The notes beneath the pieces were generated by a model, which made no database searches, was not told the origin of the DNA, and saw only the letters and a program-made list of their open reading frames with translations. Shown piece after piece: positions 56,848 to 61,707 of a stretch of 64,000 nucleotides of DNA (position 1 is the first letter of the stretch; every line of letters begins with the position of its first letter). Source of the stretch: Kangiellaceae bacterium (GTDB taxonomy: Bacteria > Pseudomonadota > Gammaproteobacteria > Enterobacterales > Kangiellaceae); the NCBI GenBank assembly GCA_039969155.1, contig JBDVOJ010000112.1, positions 3,859 to 67,858 on the forward strand, read 5' to 3'. Position numbers and translations under genes: made by a program.

Positions 56848-56991
56848 CTAATTTACGAAACTTAGATTATATATTATGAGAGTAGGATGTATCCGACATA
56901 AAGAAAACCAGATTATCAAGTTGGCAACATAAAGGATGATTAAAACCCAAGCGACTACTGCAAGAACCGGTTTCTTGATAGGCCTACTCAT
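56848..56991 (-). CDS. 47-aa putative membrane mini-protein (possible fourth cassette ORF)
   Basis: My own translation gives MSRPIKKPVLAVVAWVLIILYVANLIIWFSLCRIHPTLIIYNLSFVN*. It starts 4 nt after the attC-like R' box at 56995-57001. It is too short for the ORF track. Confidence 0.3.
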   Translation of the reverse strand: MSRPIKKPVLAVVAWVLIILYVANLIIWFSLCRIHPTLIIYNLSFVN

Positions 56992-56994
56992 AGC

Positions 56995-57057
56995 GCTTAA
57001 CGATTTACTAAGTCGAATGCGCTTTTCAGCATTTCGAATTCCAGTTTATGGTTATGC
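56995..57057 (-). other. attC-like recombination site (cassette C)
   Basis: The minus strand reads GCATAAC-CAT-AAACTGGAATTCGAAATGC-TGAAAA-GCGCATTCGACTTAGTAAATC-GTTAAGC. R'' and R' are 6/7 complementary, and the gene-proximal arm is 3 nt longer. R'' is 6/7 complementary to the cassette start GTTATGT. Confidence 0.55.
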
Positions 57058-57080
57058 ATTTTTGCTAAGAACATAATGCC

Positions 57081-57529
57081 TCACTCGTACATAGTCATTG
57101 TGATGTCACCATGAATGGTATGAACCGCCCATCCTTCTTCTTTAGTGAGATCCAATTCTTTTGCATCTTGACTGTACACAAAGACTTCAAAGTCTTGACG
57201 GCCTGGGTTAAGTTCGAATTCACATTTTGCTGAAACTAATAGCTCATCAGAAAACGTGGCATTTGATGCTTTATCGCATGTTTCACCGTTGAACTTAACT
57301 TCAATTCCCACTTCACTCTTAAATTTTTTGTATAGCTCTGAGGAAGCATTTGCCGTGAATAATACTCTACCACCTTTTTCAAAGTTGATATAAGTATCAT
57401 ATGTCCTTTCGAATCCTCCCATAGAATAACCTTCAGTCCAAGTGTCCGAATTACAGCCAGAAACAAATACAGAGAGAGCTATAAGCTTTAAAGTTAGGGA
57501 TAGTTTCATAATGTATTTATGCATAGACA
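57081..57529 (-). CDS. small lipoprotein (cassette-borne), unknown function
   Basis: It has a lipobox (VFVSGCNS). The track start at 57542 (GTG) lies inside the IS terminal repeat. The ATG at 57529 (MSMHKYIMKL...) is the first start outside the IS. Confidence 0.6.
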
Positions 57530-57531
57530 TA

Positions 57532-59187: not shown

Positions 59188-60717
59188 GCCAACTTCAAAC
59201 GCTTTAATTCCCGCAATCAATTTATCATCAAACGAGTTTAGTAATTCTGTATTCTTAACAAGGATATCCAAGTATTGGTTCACGTAATCAGAATAGGAAA
59301 CTTTCCTACTACTACACATAATTTCTAATATTTTAGAGCAATCTAGAATAGAGAACATATCTTCTGATAATTCATCACTAGTAAGTTTTTCAACTAATTT
59401 TTGTGCGAATAGTGCAGATTTACCTTTGTTGAAAATTTTACCTTTTTGCCGCTGGATTATGCTTAAAATATCTGTTTTAACTTCATCTTCATTTATACCA
59501 AATATTTCAGCACAATAAACTGGCGACAACAGATAGGATTCAATTGAATATTTTTCTAGCTTCACAATCCGATCTTCATTAGTGAACTCTTTATCCTCTC
59601 CAGTATTATCTCCATCTAAAATGAATAAGCCTCTGTTTCTTACAGGTGATGACTCGTGTAGCGACAACCTAAATAGACTTTTAACATTTTCACAATTGCC
59701 ACAAATAATTACATTACACTCAACATTTAGCTTCGCGCAAAGGTGTTCTATAGCAACTTTTTGAGCAGTATCTTCAACAAAAATTGAATTTCCAGTCTCT
59801 AAAATAGTTTCAGTTACGTTTAACAAGTCTCCAACTAATGCTTGTTGTTGCTCTTCCGTAACCTCATTACGGCATTTCACATGCCCTTGTTCCCAGACTA
59901 AAAACTTCACATCTTTATAATATTTATCTGTAAATATAAGTCTAGAGTGCGTACTTATAATTAGTTGTTTATTAAACTTAGAACAAAACCAATCAAAATA
60001 TTCAAATAACCCTTTTTCTAGATTCCAATTAAGGTGAACTTCTGGTTCATCAATGACATATATATGATGCTTATCTTTAGTTACGTACAGATTGAAAGCA
60101 AGCGACAAAATTTCTTGCTGACCGCAACTTAGATTTTCAATATTAAACACAGAAGTGTTATTAGTTTTAAATTTTACGTCAGGTCTACCTGTGTTTTGGT
60201 CCCAATCTGTAGCTAGCTCTAAACTAGGGAATATCTTATCAATTATCTCATTAAATTCTTTAGTTACATCAATGAGCACTTCTTTCGGTGGACGTTCTCC
60301 ACTTTTACATTTCAACTCAAAAAATATTGTAAATAGTTCACCAAACGAAGCATACGTATCAAATGTTTGATCGTTGATTTGTTTGCTTTTTGTTTCGTTA
60401 AGAAGTGTATCAATAGTTTTATTTTGCTGACGTATAAATTGATATAACTGCGCTATATTTTTCTTTTCAGAATTTCGCTTAGGGCTTAAAGCAAATATCT
60501 CTAATTGGTTAGCCGCAGTAATTGTTGCTATATCACTGACAAACTTCAAAGAAGGGTTATTGTTGCTTGCAAATTCTTTAATTTTTTTGATTAATGTCGT
60601 TTTACCAGTACCATTTTCACCACTTAAGAAATTCAATCCCTGATTAAAGCTGATCTTTTCAGTAAAACGACCACTAAACTCATTAAGTTCTATGCTTTGT
60701 AGATATACAGTCATCAA
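59182..60717 (-). CDS. ABC-type ATPase fused to a TOPRIM/DUF4435-like domain (OLD/PARIS-like)
   Basis: 511 aa with Walker A GENGTGKT, signature LSCGQQE, Walker B IYVIDEPEVHL and H-loop ISTHS. The C-terminal about 200 aa carries IFVEDTAQKV...FILDGDNTGE...YSIESYLL (E...DxD...E.Y, TOPRIM-like). Confidence 0.7.
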   Translation of the reverse strand: MMTVYLQSIELNEFSGRFTEKISFNQGLNFLSGENGTGKTTLIKKIKEFASNNNPSLKFVSDIATITAANQLEIFALSPKRNSEKKNIAQLYQFIRQQNKTIDTLLNETKSKQINDQTFDTYASFGELFTIFFELKCKSGERPPKEVLIDVTKEFNEIIDKIFPSLELATDWDQNTGRPDVKFKTNNTSVFNIENLSCGQQEILSLAFNLYVTKDKHHIYVIDEPEVHLNWNLEKGLFEYFDWFCSKFNKQLIISTHSRLIFTDKYYKDVKFLVWEQGHVKCRNEVTEEQQQALVGDLLNVTETILETGNSIFVEDTAQKVAIEHLCAKLNVECNVIICGNCENVKSLFRLSLHESSPVRNRGLFILDGDNTGEDKEFTNEDRIVKLEKYSIESYLLSPVYCAEIFGINEDEVKTDILSIIQRQKGKIFNKGKSALFAQKLVEKLTSDELSEDMFSILDCSKILEIMCSSRKVSYSDYVNQYLDILVKNTELLNSFDDKLIAGIKAFEVGA

Positions 60718-60760
60718 TATTCCTTATAATTAGCAGAATTCTGCAAGTTCCGATTTTGGC

Positions 60761-60839
60761 GCATAACGCCGCCATAAAAGGCGAGCAACTTGTTGCGAGT
60801 CCAGCGCTGAAAGCGCGATTTTTAATGGCCTTGTTAGAG
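60761..60839 (-). other. attC-like recombination site (cassette A)
   Basis: The minus strand reads CTCTAAC-AAG-GCCATTAAAA-(loop)-CTTTTATGGC-GGC-GTTATGC and is 79 nt long. It has an unpaired 3-nt spacer and an extra T in L''. The R'' extension GCCCTCTAAC is the exact reverse complement of the cassette start GTTAGAGGGC at 61408-61417. Confidence 0.7.
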
Positions 60840-60844
60840 GGCGA

Positions 60845-61402
60845 TTAACTATCAGCATATGCGACCCATGCTAGAGTTATTAACAACCCAATAAGGCTTA
60901 CTAACGCTAGTGCATATTCTGATACCCAAGTAAAAGCTAGGTTATAAAAACGAACCGCATTCACTATAGCCATACCAAAAGCTGCCACAGTAATAATTGC
61001 TTTGTATTTTTTAATACGCTGCCACATACAGTGGCCGAAAAAGAATAATTTACAACGCAATAATCCAAATTTACTGTGAGTCAAACCATCATATTTTAGG
61101 CCTTTTAGAGTAACCCGATATTCTAAACGAGGAGGGATTATTCCTCTTTTTCTTTCCATAAGCCCTAACTCACACAGTACTCCAGCATTATGGATTATTG
61201 CCTCCATTAGCTCTTCCTCTCTTCCTTGCCCTTTTTCGTAAGGAATACCACACAGAGAGAGTTTTCCTTGTTCAAAACGTTTAGCGAAATCGTCGATATT
61301 TATAAAACCATCGTTATTATTTGAGGTACCATCATCTTGAATTTTATGTATAACCATTCCAGAGAATAGTGACAACCATGGAATGTAAGAATCTCCAAGC
61401 AT
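60845..61402 (-). CDS. cassette-borne protein with a soluble N-domain and two C-terminal TM helices
   Basis: 185 aa. A GAGGG SD lies 6 nt upstream, inside the cassette boundary box. The C-terminal sequences AIITVAAFGMAIVNAV and LALVSLIGLLITLAWVAY are predicted TM helices. I recognise no family. Confidence 0.55.
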   Translation of the reverse strand: MLGDSYIPWLSLFSGMVIHKIQDDGTSNNNDGFINIDDFAKRFEQGKLSLCGIPYEKGQGREEELMEAIIHNAGVLCELGLMERKRGIIPPRLEYRVTLKGLKYDGLTHSKFGLLRCKLFFFGHCMWQRIKKYKAIITVAAFGMAIVNAVRFYNLAFTWVSEYALALVSLIGLLITLAWVAYADS

Positions 61403-61707
61403 GTTTAGCCCTCTAACAGTTTATTCCTACACGAGACGCGCAGTATCTAATTCCGCAACCACGAAAAATCTAAATACCAATTTAACCAGAATCATCTTTG
61501 ATTACAAGGGATTACAAAAAGTCGCCTTTGACGTATCAAGATTTGCCGGCGTGAGTCCGCGCAACCACTGCATTTAGCAACAGCTTCTCGTATTGAGATA
61601 TTACAGATTAATCAAATACTTAACTCTAGCGAAAGACTATTGCCCGGACTCGCGCGCAATAACCGATTTATGTAATTCAAAAAAGTGCTTACTGATTTAA
61701 AAACAAA

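Follow-up and report, generated by a model that had tools for sequence, protein, structure and literature searches.

The question raised by this locus is whether three neighbouring minus-strand genes, found in a 64-kb window (the whole stretch of DNA analysed, 64,000 nucleotides) from a marine gammaproteobacterium MAG labelled Kangiellaceae, are integron gene cassettes and, if so, what kind of array they form. In a cassette, a gene lacking its own promoter precedes an attC site. As single-stranded DNA, the bottom strand of this site folds to an imperfect hairpin that the integrase, IntI, recognises and cuts between the G and the TT of the R' box. This lets cassettes travel as circles and enter an array one by one. 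The CALIN class of array is known from thousands of examples. A first-pass annotation of the window proposed that the genes are cassettes bounded by attC sites and recombined at G|TT, belonging either to a CALIN-type cluster or to the distal part of a chromosomal integron. The cassette reading is borne out by three independent lines, namely an attC covariance model, the occurrence of cassette 1 in four other arrays and an insertion sequence (IS) in the second attC; of the two options, the CALIN stands and the distal part does not. We are highly confident that the region is a short chromosomal CALIN of three integron gene cassettes, with an attI-like head and a later IS1111-attC-type insertion into attC2.

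The three cassettes span 61417-56995 on the minus strand and encode, in order, a 185-aa membrane protein, a 510-aa OLD/PARIS-like ATPase-nuclease and a lipoprotein. They are flanked upstream by an M64 peptidase gene, which is closest to that of an Arenicella MAG (86% identity), and downstream by an LTD-nuclease gene. The features are as follows.

61418..61426, minus strand: attI-like left half-site GAATAAACT, directly 5' of the first crossover G|TT (G = 61417).
60767..61416, minus strand: cassette 1, TTAGAGGGC...G, holding the 185-aa ORF 61402-60845 and attC1.
60761..60839, minus strand: attC1 (79 nt); R'' CTCTAAC, spacer AAG, L'' GCCAT-T-AAAA, loop, L' TTTTATGGC, spacer GGC, R' GTTATGC.
59094..60766, minus strand: cassette 2, TTATGCGCC...G, holding ORF 60714-59182 (510 aa from ATG) and the 5' part of attC2.
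59093..59187, minus strand: attC2, from R'' to the GT of R'; GCATAAC AAG TCGTT-T-AAAAGG ... CCTCTTAACGA GGC GT.
57526..59091, plus strand: IS1111-attC-type IS, 1566 bp, with an extra junction base at 59092.
59093 (first base, T), then 57525-57001, minus strand: cassette 3, holding the lipoprotein ORF 57524-57081 and attC3.
56995..57057, minus strand: attC3 (63 nt), putative; R'' GCATAAC, spacer CATAA, L'' ACT-GG-AATTCGAA, loop, L' TTCGACTTAGT, spacer AAATC, R' GTTAAGC.
56805..57000, minus strand: sequence distal to attC3, with a 47-aa ORF at 56991-56848 and an R''-like ACATAAC AAA at 56839-56830.

The boxes of all three sites fit the attC consensus of R'' (RYYYAAC) and R' (G|TTRRRY) with AAC/GTT kept, the pairs being CTCTAAC/GTTATGC, GCATAAC/GT(C)[IS]TATGC and GCATAAC/GTTAAGC. 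The R'' boxes read in the first-pass annotation are all present (60839-60833, 59187-59181 and 57057-57051), as are its R' boxes GTTATGC (60767-60761) and GTTAAGC (57001-56995). Its third R' box, 'GT|TATGT', has to be replaced, as TATGTC is the end of the IS; the true box is GT(C)|TATGC, the remaining TATGC lying beyond the IS at 57525-57521. The AAG/GGC spacers and the extra T in L'' that had been noted for attC1 and attC2 are seen both in the sequence and in the alignment to our covariance model, where one extra base in L'' accompanies an unpaired spacer and gives an extrahelical base. On the bottom strand this base is an A, not the commonest G, and the same is true of several control sites.

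The annotation had suggested running an attC model over the region and folding the bottom strands. We built a model, R2, from 16 foreign attC sites of Klebsiella, Pseudoalteromonas, Alteromonas, Cycloclasticus and Vibrio arrays, and searched both strands of the 64-kb window. It scored attC1 at 43.7 bits (E=1e-8) and, despite the IS interruption, attC2 at 29.3 bits (E=5.6e-5). These are the only significant sites in the window, both on the cassette strand, and the next-best match in the 128 kb of searched strand reaches 10.8 bits (E=3.3). Control arrays yielded 27 R2 sites at E<0.01, and three loci lacking an array yielded none. Once the IS is taken out, attC2 shows 92/100 identity with an uninterrupted attC that is joined to an unrelated 428-aa gene in a metagenomic array, L024. 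The third site, attC3, was left unscored by this subfamily model in the window search because its spacer and L-box register differ. Its layout is canonical, and its identification as an attC, which is sequence-based, rests on its fold, box sequences, position and end complementarity (9/9, below). In an unconstrained DNA fold its bottom strand forms a single hairpin with the R boxes paired, the internal spacer unpaired and bulges on the '' arm (-9.6 kcal/mol, z=-2.0, versus -7.2 for the top strand), so that the attC architecture is seen here by folding and in attC1 and attC2 in the model alignment. Bulged bases lie on the same arm in 3/3 sites. Among the 292 TAAC...GTTA pairs in the window, the constrained bottom-strand fold of attC1 ranks second and the constrained fold of attC3 twelfth. 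Part of attC1 also fits a simple terminator pattern on the opposite strand.

Contrary to the first-pass annotation, the three genes do not directly follow one another: a 1566-bp element of the IS110/IS1111 family parts attC2 from cassette 3. Its transposase matches Pfam DEDD_Tnp_IS110 (PF01548) and Transposase_20 (PF02371) as well as NCBIfam NF033542 (IS110 family, 197 bits). The gene starts at 57640, carries a frameshift near 58503, as judged against an intact 384-aa homologue, and ends at the second-frame stop at 58724; a non-coding region of ~370 nt follows. Subterminal inverted repeats, ATGACTCCCAC, lie 6 and 4 nt from the ends (57532-57542 pairs with 59077-59087). Five relatives, 69-74% identical, sit in attC R' boxes of five other arrays with the same ends, position and orientation. 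They and the window copy are all at GGCGT|TA (AAAGT|TA in array L021), with the transposase gene antiparallel to the cassettes. This clade is marine except for one member, which is flanked by arr-3 and qacEdelta1 in a clinical class 1 integron of K. pneumoniae; the window IS is at most 47% identical to most of the enterobacterial IS110-family elements among the matches listed.

A DEDD IS110-family transposase, subterminal inverted repeats, a long non-coding stretch 3' of the transposase gene, a fixed position at the R' end and a single orientation are also the features of the IS1111-attC group (ISKpn4, ISPst6, ISPa25 and ISPa21), as that group is summarised in PMC11187229 from Tetu & Holmes 2008 and Post & Hall 2009; the likeness to these named elements is one of features, not of sequence identity. 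The window copy differs in its frameshifted transposase and in one unexplained extra junction base, a C at 59092. IS1111 members ISKpn4, ISPst6 and ISPa25 target one attC end via a seekRNA (PMC11187229). The target GGCGTTA recurs ~242-253 nt from the right end of the window IS and of three relatives, and in L021, which has a different target, ATAACTT stands in its place, each match being a 7-mer only. We propose that an RNA-guided IS of this group entered the R' box of attC2 after the array had formed, one base from the integrase crossover. The insertion should block recombination at attC2 and fuse cassettes 2 and 3 into one unit, and the transposase would since have become frameshifted.

Recognising the IS ends also corrects cassette 3. 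Once the IS bases are removed, its start, GTTATGCAT, is a 9/9 reverse complement of ATGCATAAC at its own 3' end, in place of the 6/7 match first given. The other two end matches had been read correctly, at 10/10 for both cassette 1 (61417-61408 versus 60842-60833) and cassette 2 (60767-60758 versus 59190-59181). Likewise, the minus-strand ORFs 61402-60845 (185 aa) and 60717/60714-59182 (511/510 aa) stand as annotated. The third, 57530-57081 at 149 aa, had taken its two leading codons from the IS, and the native lipoprotein has 147 aa, with its ATG at 57524 and a lipobox VSGC.

Cassette 1 carries the strongest signs of movement. Fold evidence gives its protein a weak winged-helix-like N-terminal domain and C-terminal membrane helices. 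Homologues occur in four other arrays (L009, L024, L025 and L026; Cycloclasticus and three metagenome contigs) at 84-88% nucleotide identity, with a constant spacing of 579 nt between the crossover G and R''. The Cycloclasticus array also carries TIR, GmrSD and PIN cassettes. In each array the similarity sets in precisely at G|TTAGAGGGC; across the contexts the preceding 60 nt are not related and each time contain another attC, and the neighbour on that side changes as well. Cassette 1 has been caught in five different arrays, in at least three genera, and the comparison of these five contexts shows that it moves as a unit whose breakpoints lie at G|TT. In the case of cassettes 2 and 3 it is only the 10/10 and 9/9 end complementarity that suggests mobility. 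The comparison of relatives that the first-pass annotation had called for is answered in part. Junction differences at G|TT are found for cassette 1 across arrays, but no presence/absence polymorphism within the species was seen among the 7-8 assemblies carrying these proteins, which are near-identical (one mismatch in 12.9 kb).

These results bear on an alternative in which the palindromes are ordinary intergenic hairpins, i.e. terminators or REP-like repeats, and the end matches are coincidental. Taken alone, attC3 is modest (z=-2.0), 11 of the 292 TAAC...GTTA pairs in the window fold equally well per nucleotide, and the terminator-like part of attC1 would suit such a reading. We nevertheless consider it wholly improbable given the model E-values of attC1 and attC2, a cassette 1 junction conserved across five genomic contexts, an attC-specific IS sitting in attC2, the end complementarity of all three cassettes and the bulges on a common arm. 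For attC1 and attC2 it is rejected on the E-values, junctions, IS and end complementarity.

What kind of array do these cassettes form? Pfam scans of the window ORFs found no tyrosine recombinase or IntI, in agreement with the first-pass annotation. A tblastn search with a verified IntI (TIGR02249, 388.6 bits) gave no match at E<=10 in the 64-kb window, nor in the next 9 kb, where the annotation had suggested that intI be sought. In a complete integron intI is adjacent to attI and divergent from the cassettes; here that place is taken by the M64 peptidase gene, which is co-oriented with the cassettes and whose stop codon lies 290 non-coding bp before the array head. Co-oriented housekeeping genes (M64 peptidase, GNAT, Ppx-GppA, peptidase S9 and others) extend upstream for at least 11 kb. 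The attC sites do belong to families known from marine chromosomal integrons, as would be expected if the array were the far end of a large sedentary chromosomal integron with its integrase beyond the window. This explanation is very unlikely, as no attC lies upstream of cassette 1, where the 290 bp and the housekeeping genes hold no IntI, R2 finds no further attC in the window, and the downstream side consists of the LTD-nuclease gene and then ordinary chromosomal genes. The array boundaries contradict it. With no integrase in the window or the 9 kb beyond, and with an attI-like head only 290 bp from the end of a housekeeping gene, the array is a CALIN complete in itself rather than a large integron's tail.

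We infer that the cassettes were loaded at this head, a double-stranded attI-like site (GAATAAACTG|TT), by an IntI that no longer has its gene beside the array, whether encoded elsewhere or only transiently present. The 9-mer GAATAAACT is found identically, at the same position, before the first cassette of the unrelated array L024, and it matches 7/9 a true attI junction beside intI in a P. piscicida integron (TAATAAGCT|GTTAGC). Beyond the 9-mer the upstream sequence is homologous neither to the P. piscicida attI region nor to its counterpart in L024. One explanation is that the locus is the remnant of a once-complete integron that lost intI and most of attI, leaving the last ~10 nt of attI and three cassettes. 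The resemblance of GAATAAACT|GTTAG to the true attI junction and its identity in L024 speak for this, and intI loss is one accepted origin of CALINs (PMC4889954). However, the only space between the array and the M64 peptidase gene is the 290 non-coding bp, in which tblastn detects no IntI similarity at E<=10 and which resembles neither the P. piscicida attI region nor, past the 9-mer, the L024 upstream sequence. Two independent deletions would have to end at the same ~10 nt in the window and in L024, and about 95% of CALINs lie without intI pseudogenes nearby (PMC4889954). We regard a remnant as possible, though we lean against it.

A bolder proposal, which we offer tentatively and consider rather unlikely, is that the array sits on an orphan attI-like platform: a short double-stranded GAATAAACTG|TT that heads integrase-less arrays in unrelated contexts (the window and L024, more loosely Cycloclasticus) and resembles Pseudoalteromonas attI. 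Sites of this kind would receive their cassettes in trans, through an integrase encoded at another locus or present only for a time. We found no syntenic relative in which the two flanking genes enclose an empty site, GGAATAAACTG|TTAAGCGCTATGAG. Cassettes inserted into genomes at attG or secondary sites (bioRxiv 10.1101/2022.09.11.507474) likewise lie outside complete integrons, in intergenic sequence beside a double-stranded G|TT (GWT), and the sequence after attC3 (TTAAGC...) could be the right half of such an original site. The attG sites of IntI1 in E. coli, however, share only GWT and weak flanking motifs, whereas here two unrelated loci agree in all 9 nt left of the crossover, and these 9 nt resemble a true attI.

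At the other end of the array, model R2 agrees with the first-pass annotation in finding no convincing fourth attC, the stretch 56839-56805 scoring a non-significant 9.4 bits (E=7.6). A fourth cassette is unsupported, and the sequence at 56805-57000 is either a decayed cassette or chromosomal sequence that originally formed the right half of the insertion site. Neither the 47-aa ORF nor the cassette 3 protein matches a family in Pfam, PADLOC or NCBIfam, and no metagenome relatives of the latter were found.

The GC content of cassette 2 is 30-33%, versus 38-43% in the flanks, and the stop codon of its gene (TAA at 59184-59182) does lie inside the R'' box, as had been noticed. The protein matches Pfam AAA_15/AAA_21 and PDB AriA; its best PADLOC model is a fused AriAB (1.1e-22), and its top Foldseek matches are the OLD nuclease 6p74, PARIS 8ux9/8v47 and GajA. 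Residues E314 and D367-G-D369 are invariant across the family. The Pfam scan did not recognise the C-terminal domain, and DUF4435, found in relatives, is absent here. The PADLOC, residue and Foldseek results point to an ABC ATPase head joined to a Toprim-like (E...DxD) C-terminal domain, as in PARIS (AriA/AriB), OLD-family proteins and Gabija GajA; the cassette 2 product differs in being a single 510-aa polypeptide, 12-16% identical to the solved proteins. It is an OLD-family protein of the PARIS/Gabija kind, for which anti-phage defence is, judging by homology, the most likely role. Like the phage-defence cassettes described in integrons (bioRxiv 10.1101/2024.07.02.601719; PMC12614218), it is a compact single-gene candidate system, but it resides in an integrase-less chromosomal array and its function is a candidate one.

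The locus agrees with the CALINs defined in 2016 (PMC4889954) in its three co-oriented attC sites less than 4 kb apart (1.65 kb from attC1 to attC2 and 2.1 kb, including the IS, from attC2 to attC3), its ORFs of mostly unassigned function, its small size and its lack of intI or an intI pseudogene within about 10 kb. It differs at its proximal end, where an attI-like junction agrees 9/9 with that of an unrelated array, and in its second attC, which holds an IS1111-attC element.

In summary, this element is real but ordinary: CALINs are already known, and the current understanding of integrons is unchanged. It provides a well-delimited natural example of cassettes settling in a chromosome away from an integrase, with an attC type common to unrelated genes, one junction frozen by an attC-hunting IS and a compact candidate defence gene travelling as a cassette. 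If the platform proposal were true, integron decay and random attG insertion would not account for every CALIN: some would be functional satellite platforms that cassettes enter at a specific sequence. Should the shared attI-like entry sequence be upheld in more genomes, it would bear on how CALINs arise.

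Three genes on the minus strand of the window, each followed by an attC site, make up a short array of gene cassettes (61417-56995). The finding is real, and the main interpretation of the first-pass annotation, that these are integron-type cassettes, is right. All the attC boxes that it named are present where it placed them, with the exception of its third R' box, which takes in six bases (TATGTC) of an insertion sequence (IS). Nor are the three genes consecutive, as had been described, since an overlooked IS of 1566 bp lies between the ATPase and lipoprotein genes. The locus is laid out as follows.

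Features of the locus, in minus-strand order (window positions)
63114-61708, minus: M64 peptidase gene, then 290 non-coding bp before the array
61402-60845, minus: 185-aa ORF, cassette 1
60839-60833, minus: R'' box of attC1, CTCTAAC
60767-60761, minus: R' box of attC1, GTTATGC
60717-59182, minus: 510/511-aa ATPase ORF, cassette 2
59187-59181, minus: R'' box of attC2, GCATAAC
57526-59091, transposase on plus: IS110-family element, between ATPase and lipoprotein
57524 (native ATG) to 57081, minus: lipoprotein ORF, cassette 3
57057-57051, minus: R'' box of attC3, GCATAAC
57001-56995, minus: R' box of attC3, GTTAAGC
56991-56848, minus: 47-aa ORF, distal to attC3
after the 47-aa ORF: a gene fragment, then an LTD-nuclease gene

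Cassettes 1 and 2 each open with ten bases that pair without a mismatch, as reverse complement, with the ten that end in the cassette's own R'' box. This 10/10 match had already been read correctly from the sequence, as had the position of the ATPase stop codon inside the R'' box of attC2. For cassette 3 a match of 6/7 had been given. Once the IS bases TATGTC (57531-57526) are placed outside the cassette, the R' box of attC2 is restored to GTTATGC, cassette 3 starts with TTATGCAT, and GTTATGCAT is a 9/9 reverse complement of ATGCATAAC at its 3′ end. The native lipoprotein start, ATG at 57524, then lies within the R' box.

The third site, attC3, lies 23 nt past the lipoprotein stop codon. The architecture proposed for it is borne out by an unconstrained fold of the bottom strand, which gives a single hairpin with the R boxes paired, the internal spacer unpaired and the bulges on the 3′ ('') arm, at -9.6 kcal/mol (z=-2.0) vs -7.2 for the top strand. 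Among the window's 292 TAAC...GTTA pairs, attC1 ranks 2nd and attC3 12th by constrained fold, a measure that is only moderately discriminating because embedded terminators score well too. The identification of attC3 as an attC rests on its fold, its boxes, its position, the side of its bulges and the 9/9 end match.

The attC sites were also scored with a covariance model, R2, built from 16 sites outside the window. These came from a Klebsiella class 1 integron and from two Pseudoalteromonas, an Alteromonas, a Cycloclasticus and a Vibrio array, with the attC1 orthologue left out. The rows of the model combine trimmed and full-length sites (alignment A4), with the variable centre treated as insertion, and the R and L boxes of the training sites pair as expected, with many compensatory changes. 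With filters off and both strands of the 64-kb window searched, R2 finds attC1 (60839-60761, 43.7 bits, E=1e-8) and, despite the IS, attC2 (59187-59084, 29.3 bits, E=5.6e-5); no other score in the window exceeds 10.8 bits. On control loci it recovers 27 sites at E<0.01, untrained ones among them, and on three array-free loci of M64 peptidase relatives it recovers none. R2 does not score attC3, whose spacers (CATAA and AAATC) and L-box register follow the classical short-attC layout, not the TAAC-AAR...RGC-GTTA subfamily of the model. Further training sites shared the model's architecture, so a broader model would be no test of attC3. A fourth cassette is unsupported, in line with the original reading, as the ACATAAC AAA after the 47-aa ORF has no L'/R' partner (R2: 9.4 bits, E=7.6).

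Several other searches were set aside. An ad hoc scanner combining a regular expression with pairing found attC1 together with spurious sites and was not discriminating, MAFFT alignments of full-length sites (A1, A2) misplaced the L'' boxes, and an earlier model (R1, from trimmed 48-nt sites) could not report sites of 79-128 nt, which exceed its maximum hit length, so that its lack of hits is not counter-evidence. In an Rfam scan of 52-64 kb the sole match was below threshold, to the Acido-Lenti-1 RNA at 60803-60840 over part of attC1 (24 bits, E=0.059, where the gathering score is 37); this is almost certainly a chance hairpin similarity.

The IS that splits attC2 (1566 bp, 57526-59091) encodes a DEDD/IS110-family transposase (Pfam PF01548 and PF02371; NCBIfam NF033542, 197 bits). 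It carries 11-nt subterminal inverted repeats, and the transposase gene is followed by a non-coding stretch of about 370 nt, which is the IS1111 layout. A tblastn search of plasmids and chromids returned relatives at 69-74% identity in Pseudoalteromonas, Alteromonas, Vibrio halioticoli and the K. pneumoniae plasmid pKP5362-1, where the copy sits in a class 1 integron, with the arr-3 cassette on one side and qacEdelta1 on the other. All five relatives examined have the ends GACATAATGACTCCC...GGGAGTCATACCA and lie antiparallel to the cassettes, with cassette-strand flanks of the form GGCGT/TA, or AAAGT/TA in one (slashes mark the point of insertion or crossover). The window IS has the same ends, position and orientation, with one unexplained extra base at 59092 (C on the cassette strand), where the attC flank gives way to the IS. 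In published work the IS1111 members ISKpn4, ISPst6 and ISPa25 target one end of attC sites, using as guide a seekRNA that the non-coding region downstream supplies (PMC11187229), and the window IS is therefore an independent biological 'reader' that has treated attC2 as an attC.

The non-coding region of the IS contains GGCGTTA about 242 nt from the right end (58840-58850), the very sequence of the cassette-strand target that spans the point of insertion. The same 7-mer stands at this place in three relatives, and ATAACTT stands there in the relative with target AAGT/TAT. These matches, 7-mers only, are suggestive of a candidate seekRNA guide. A search for a contiguous arr-3/3'-CS empty site put two-piece matches on top; it confirmed the 3'-CS sequence and does not by itself fix the breakpoint. 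Against the Klebsiella homologue, which is intact at 384 aa, the transposase has a frameshift near 58503, where the sequence is a run rich in G/C (58490-58520), and this copy is thus probably dead, barring an assembly error. The frameshift and the C at 59092 recur identically in a second assembly, which differs by one base in 12.9 kb and is not an independent confirmation. Elsewhere, the plasmid pPBSW1 of Pseudoalteromonas sp. Bsw20308 (23800-36100) has a cassette array of about 12 kb with three separate IS110-family insertions and no integron integrase listed within the 49 kb examined, in a PLSDB gene table that omits pseudogenes.

Comparison with other arrays bears on the mobility of cassette 1. 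The 185-aa protein has relatives at 45-89% identity in Cycloclasticus (82%, 'MULTISPECIES'), Vibrio sp. OCN044 and Neptuniibacter, and also on several metagenome contigs. The Vibrio homologue ends a superintegron-like array containing ccdAB, those of the metagenome contigs L024 and L026 lie inside arrays of attC-separated genes, that of a short contig, L025, is flanked by attC sites, and that of Cycloclasticus (CP023664.1) belongs to an attC-separated run of small co-oriented genes (TIR, the homologue, GmrSD, a two-gene unit and PIN). The four close relatives (Cycloclasticus, L024, L025 and L026; 82-89% protein identity) all have exactly 579 nt from the G of G/TTAGAGGGC to R'', and inside the cassette their nucleotides are 84-88% identical to those of the window. 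As the first-pass annotation anticipated, similarity starts at the G/TT junction; the 60 nt upstream are at noise level, with a different attC each time. This junction pattern is that expected of a mobile cassette.

Without the IS, attC2 is 92/100 identical to an intact attC of L024 (5409-5507), which follows an unrelated 428-aa gene and precedes the cassette-1 homologue, and it shares 74% identity with one of the P. piscicida integron's attC sites. One attC type on two unrelated genes would be expected had both cassettes arisen in a single chromosomal integron, or in closely related ones. The L024 homologue of cassette 1 keeps the R'' box and AAGGC at 6079-6142 with a different, shorter attC interior (64 nt vs 79 nt), so the attC within one cassette family can be partly replaced. 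The Cycloclasticus array (9414-15593) is integrase-less and holds five attC-bounded cassettes, rich in defence-type genes, the last with PIN_12; it begins after an Rrf2 regulator gene, with no IntI similarity in 20 kb. In L025 the attC of the cassette-1 homologue is cut short at about 1720-1781 by sequence with GGGGTCAGACTCGATTGATTT, and the Cycloclasticus locus has two similar motifs, GAGTCTGACCCTATTGATTT (about 16900 and 18500); these may mark the two ends of some small mobile element for which arrays are likewise a target.

The reported lack of a tyrosine recombinase was upheld. Pfam scans of the cassette genes, flanking genes and window ORFs of 230-470 aa gave housekeeping functions and no Phage_integrase domain, and the 9 kb past 64000 hold equally ordinary genes and no integrase. 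The P. piscicida integron, one of the control loci, is complete, with a 325-aa ORF that scores 388.6 bits on TIGR02249. This integrase recovers the V. halioticoli intI by tblastn (48% identity) and has no match at E<=10 in the window or its 9-kb extension. The array is therefore a CALIN, an attC-site cluster that has no integron integrase, by the published definition (PMC4889954). The other option offered, the distal part of a chromosomal integron, falls away because nothing attC-like lies upstream of cassette 1. Scanned for promoters, the sequence proved poorer in sigma-70-like sites than its shuffled versions, and it gave no nameable Pc candidate.

The proximal junction has a feature of its own. 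At the first crossover, on its left, the window has GGAATAAACT/GTTAGAGGGC, and in L024 the first cassette, which holds a different gene, has TGAATAAACT/GTTAGCTTTC before it. The 14-mer GAATAAACTGTTAG is absent elsewhere in the roughly 0.8 Mb of both-strand sequence compared. The true attI junction of P. piscicida, TAATAAGCT/GTTAGC, is a 7/9 match, and the Cycloclasticus junction is TTAATACT/GTTAGG. Local alignments of the regions upstream of the window, L024, Cycloclasticus and P. piscicida arrays gave no significant similarity past the junction 9-mer. To our knowledge, the left half of attI is never carried by IntI-mediated excision, so the shared 9-mer points either to a loading integrase that prefers certain sequences as pseudo-attI sites or to two integrons truncated alike. 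We tentatively favour the integrase preference, at a little short of an even chance; that the window and L024 integrons were truncated at the same point seems rather unlikely. The closest precedent for pseudo-attI loading is the recently described attG route (bioRxiv 10.1101/2022.09.11.507474).

If loading at a pseudo-attI is right, TTAAGCGC... after attC3 would be the original right half-site; the GTTAAGC there is a perfect GTTRRRY. The predicted empty site would then be GGAATAAACTGTTAAGCGCTATGAG, with the M64 peptidase gene on one side and the 391-aa/LTD-nuclease genes on the other. In a comparison for empty sites, relatives of the M64 peptidase (71-87% identity) were on short or non-syntenic contigs, and contigs with the exact proteins all belong to the same strain. 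The window matches, as reverse complement, part of contig JBDVSR010000012.1 (380 kb) of assembly GCA_039966935.1. The MAG is labelled Kangiellaceae by its source, and for the M64 peptidase the nearest relative (86%) comes from a MAG of Arenicella. Just beyond the array, an 89-aa ORF (56366-56693) is a 75%-identical copy of the final 89 residues of the 391-aa protein (51804-52979). Direct repeats of about 300 nt (56366-56693 and 52713-53037, 82% nucleotide identity) flank the LTD-nuclease gene and a 123-aa ORF, which suggests that a 3.4-kb segment was inserted or duplicated beside the array.

As to cassette contents, cassette 2 (59000-60800) has 30-33% GC vs 38-43% in its flanks, which is consistent with a recent foreign origin. 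Its product matches AAA_15/AAA_21, the PADLOC fused AriAB model (1.1e-22) and AriA in the PDB, and relatives at 35-39% identity have Pfam DUF4435. Across 30 family members there is no variation at a glutamate (E314) or at a D-G-D motif (367-369), residues as found in Toprim domains, and the AlphaFold model of the 510-aa protein (pLDDT 84.8) best matches Thermus OLD nuclease, PARIS AriA/AriB and Gabija GajA. By homology, the product is most likely a single-protein OLD/PARIS-like defence nuclease. In the model of the 185-aa protein, long membrane helices come after a domain that is weakly winged-helix-like (pLDDT 74; Foldseek E about 0.01). For the lipoprotein, the family libraries searched and the metagenome scan gave no relatives.

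In its parts this element belongs to known kinds, a CALIN, an IS1111 element in an attC and an OLD-family cassette; of CALINs alone, thousands have been recorded. The shared attI-like entry sequence is the one feature that might repay more work.
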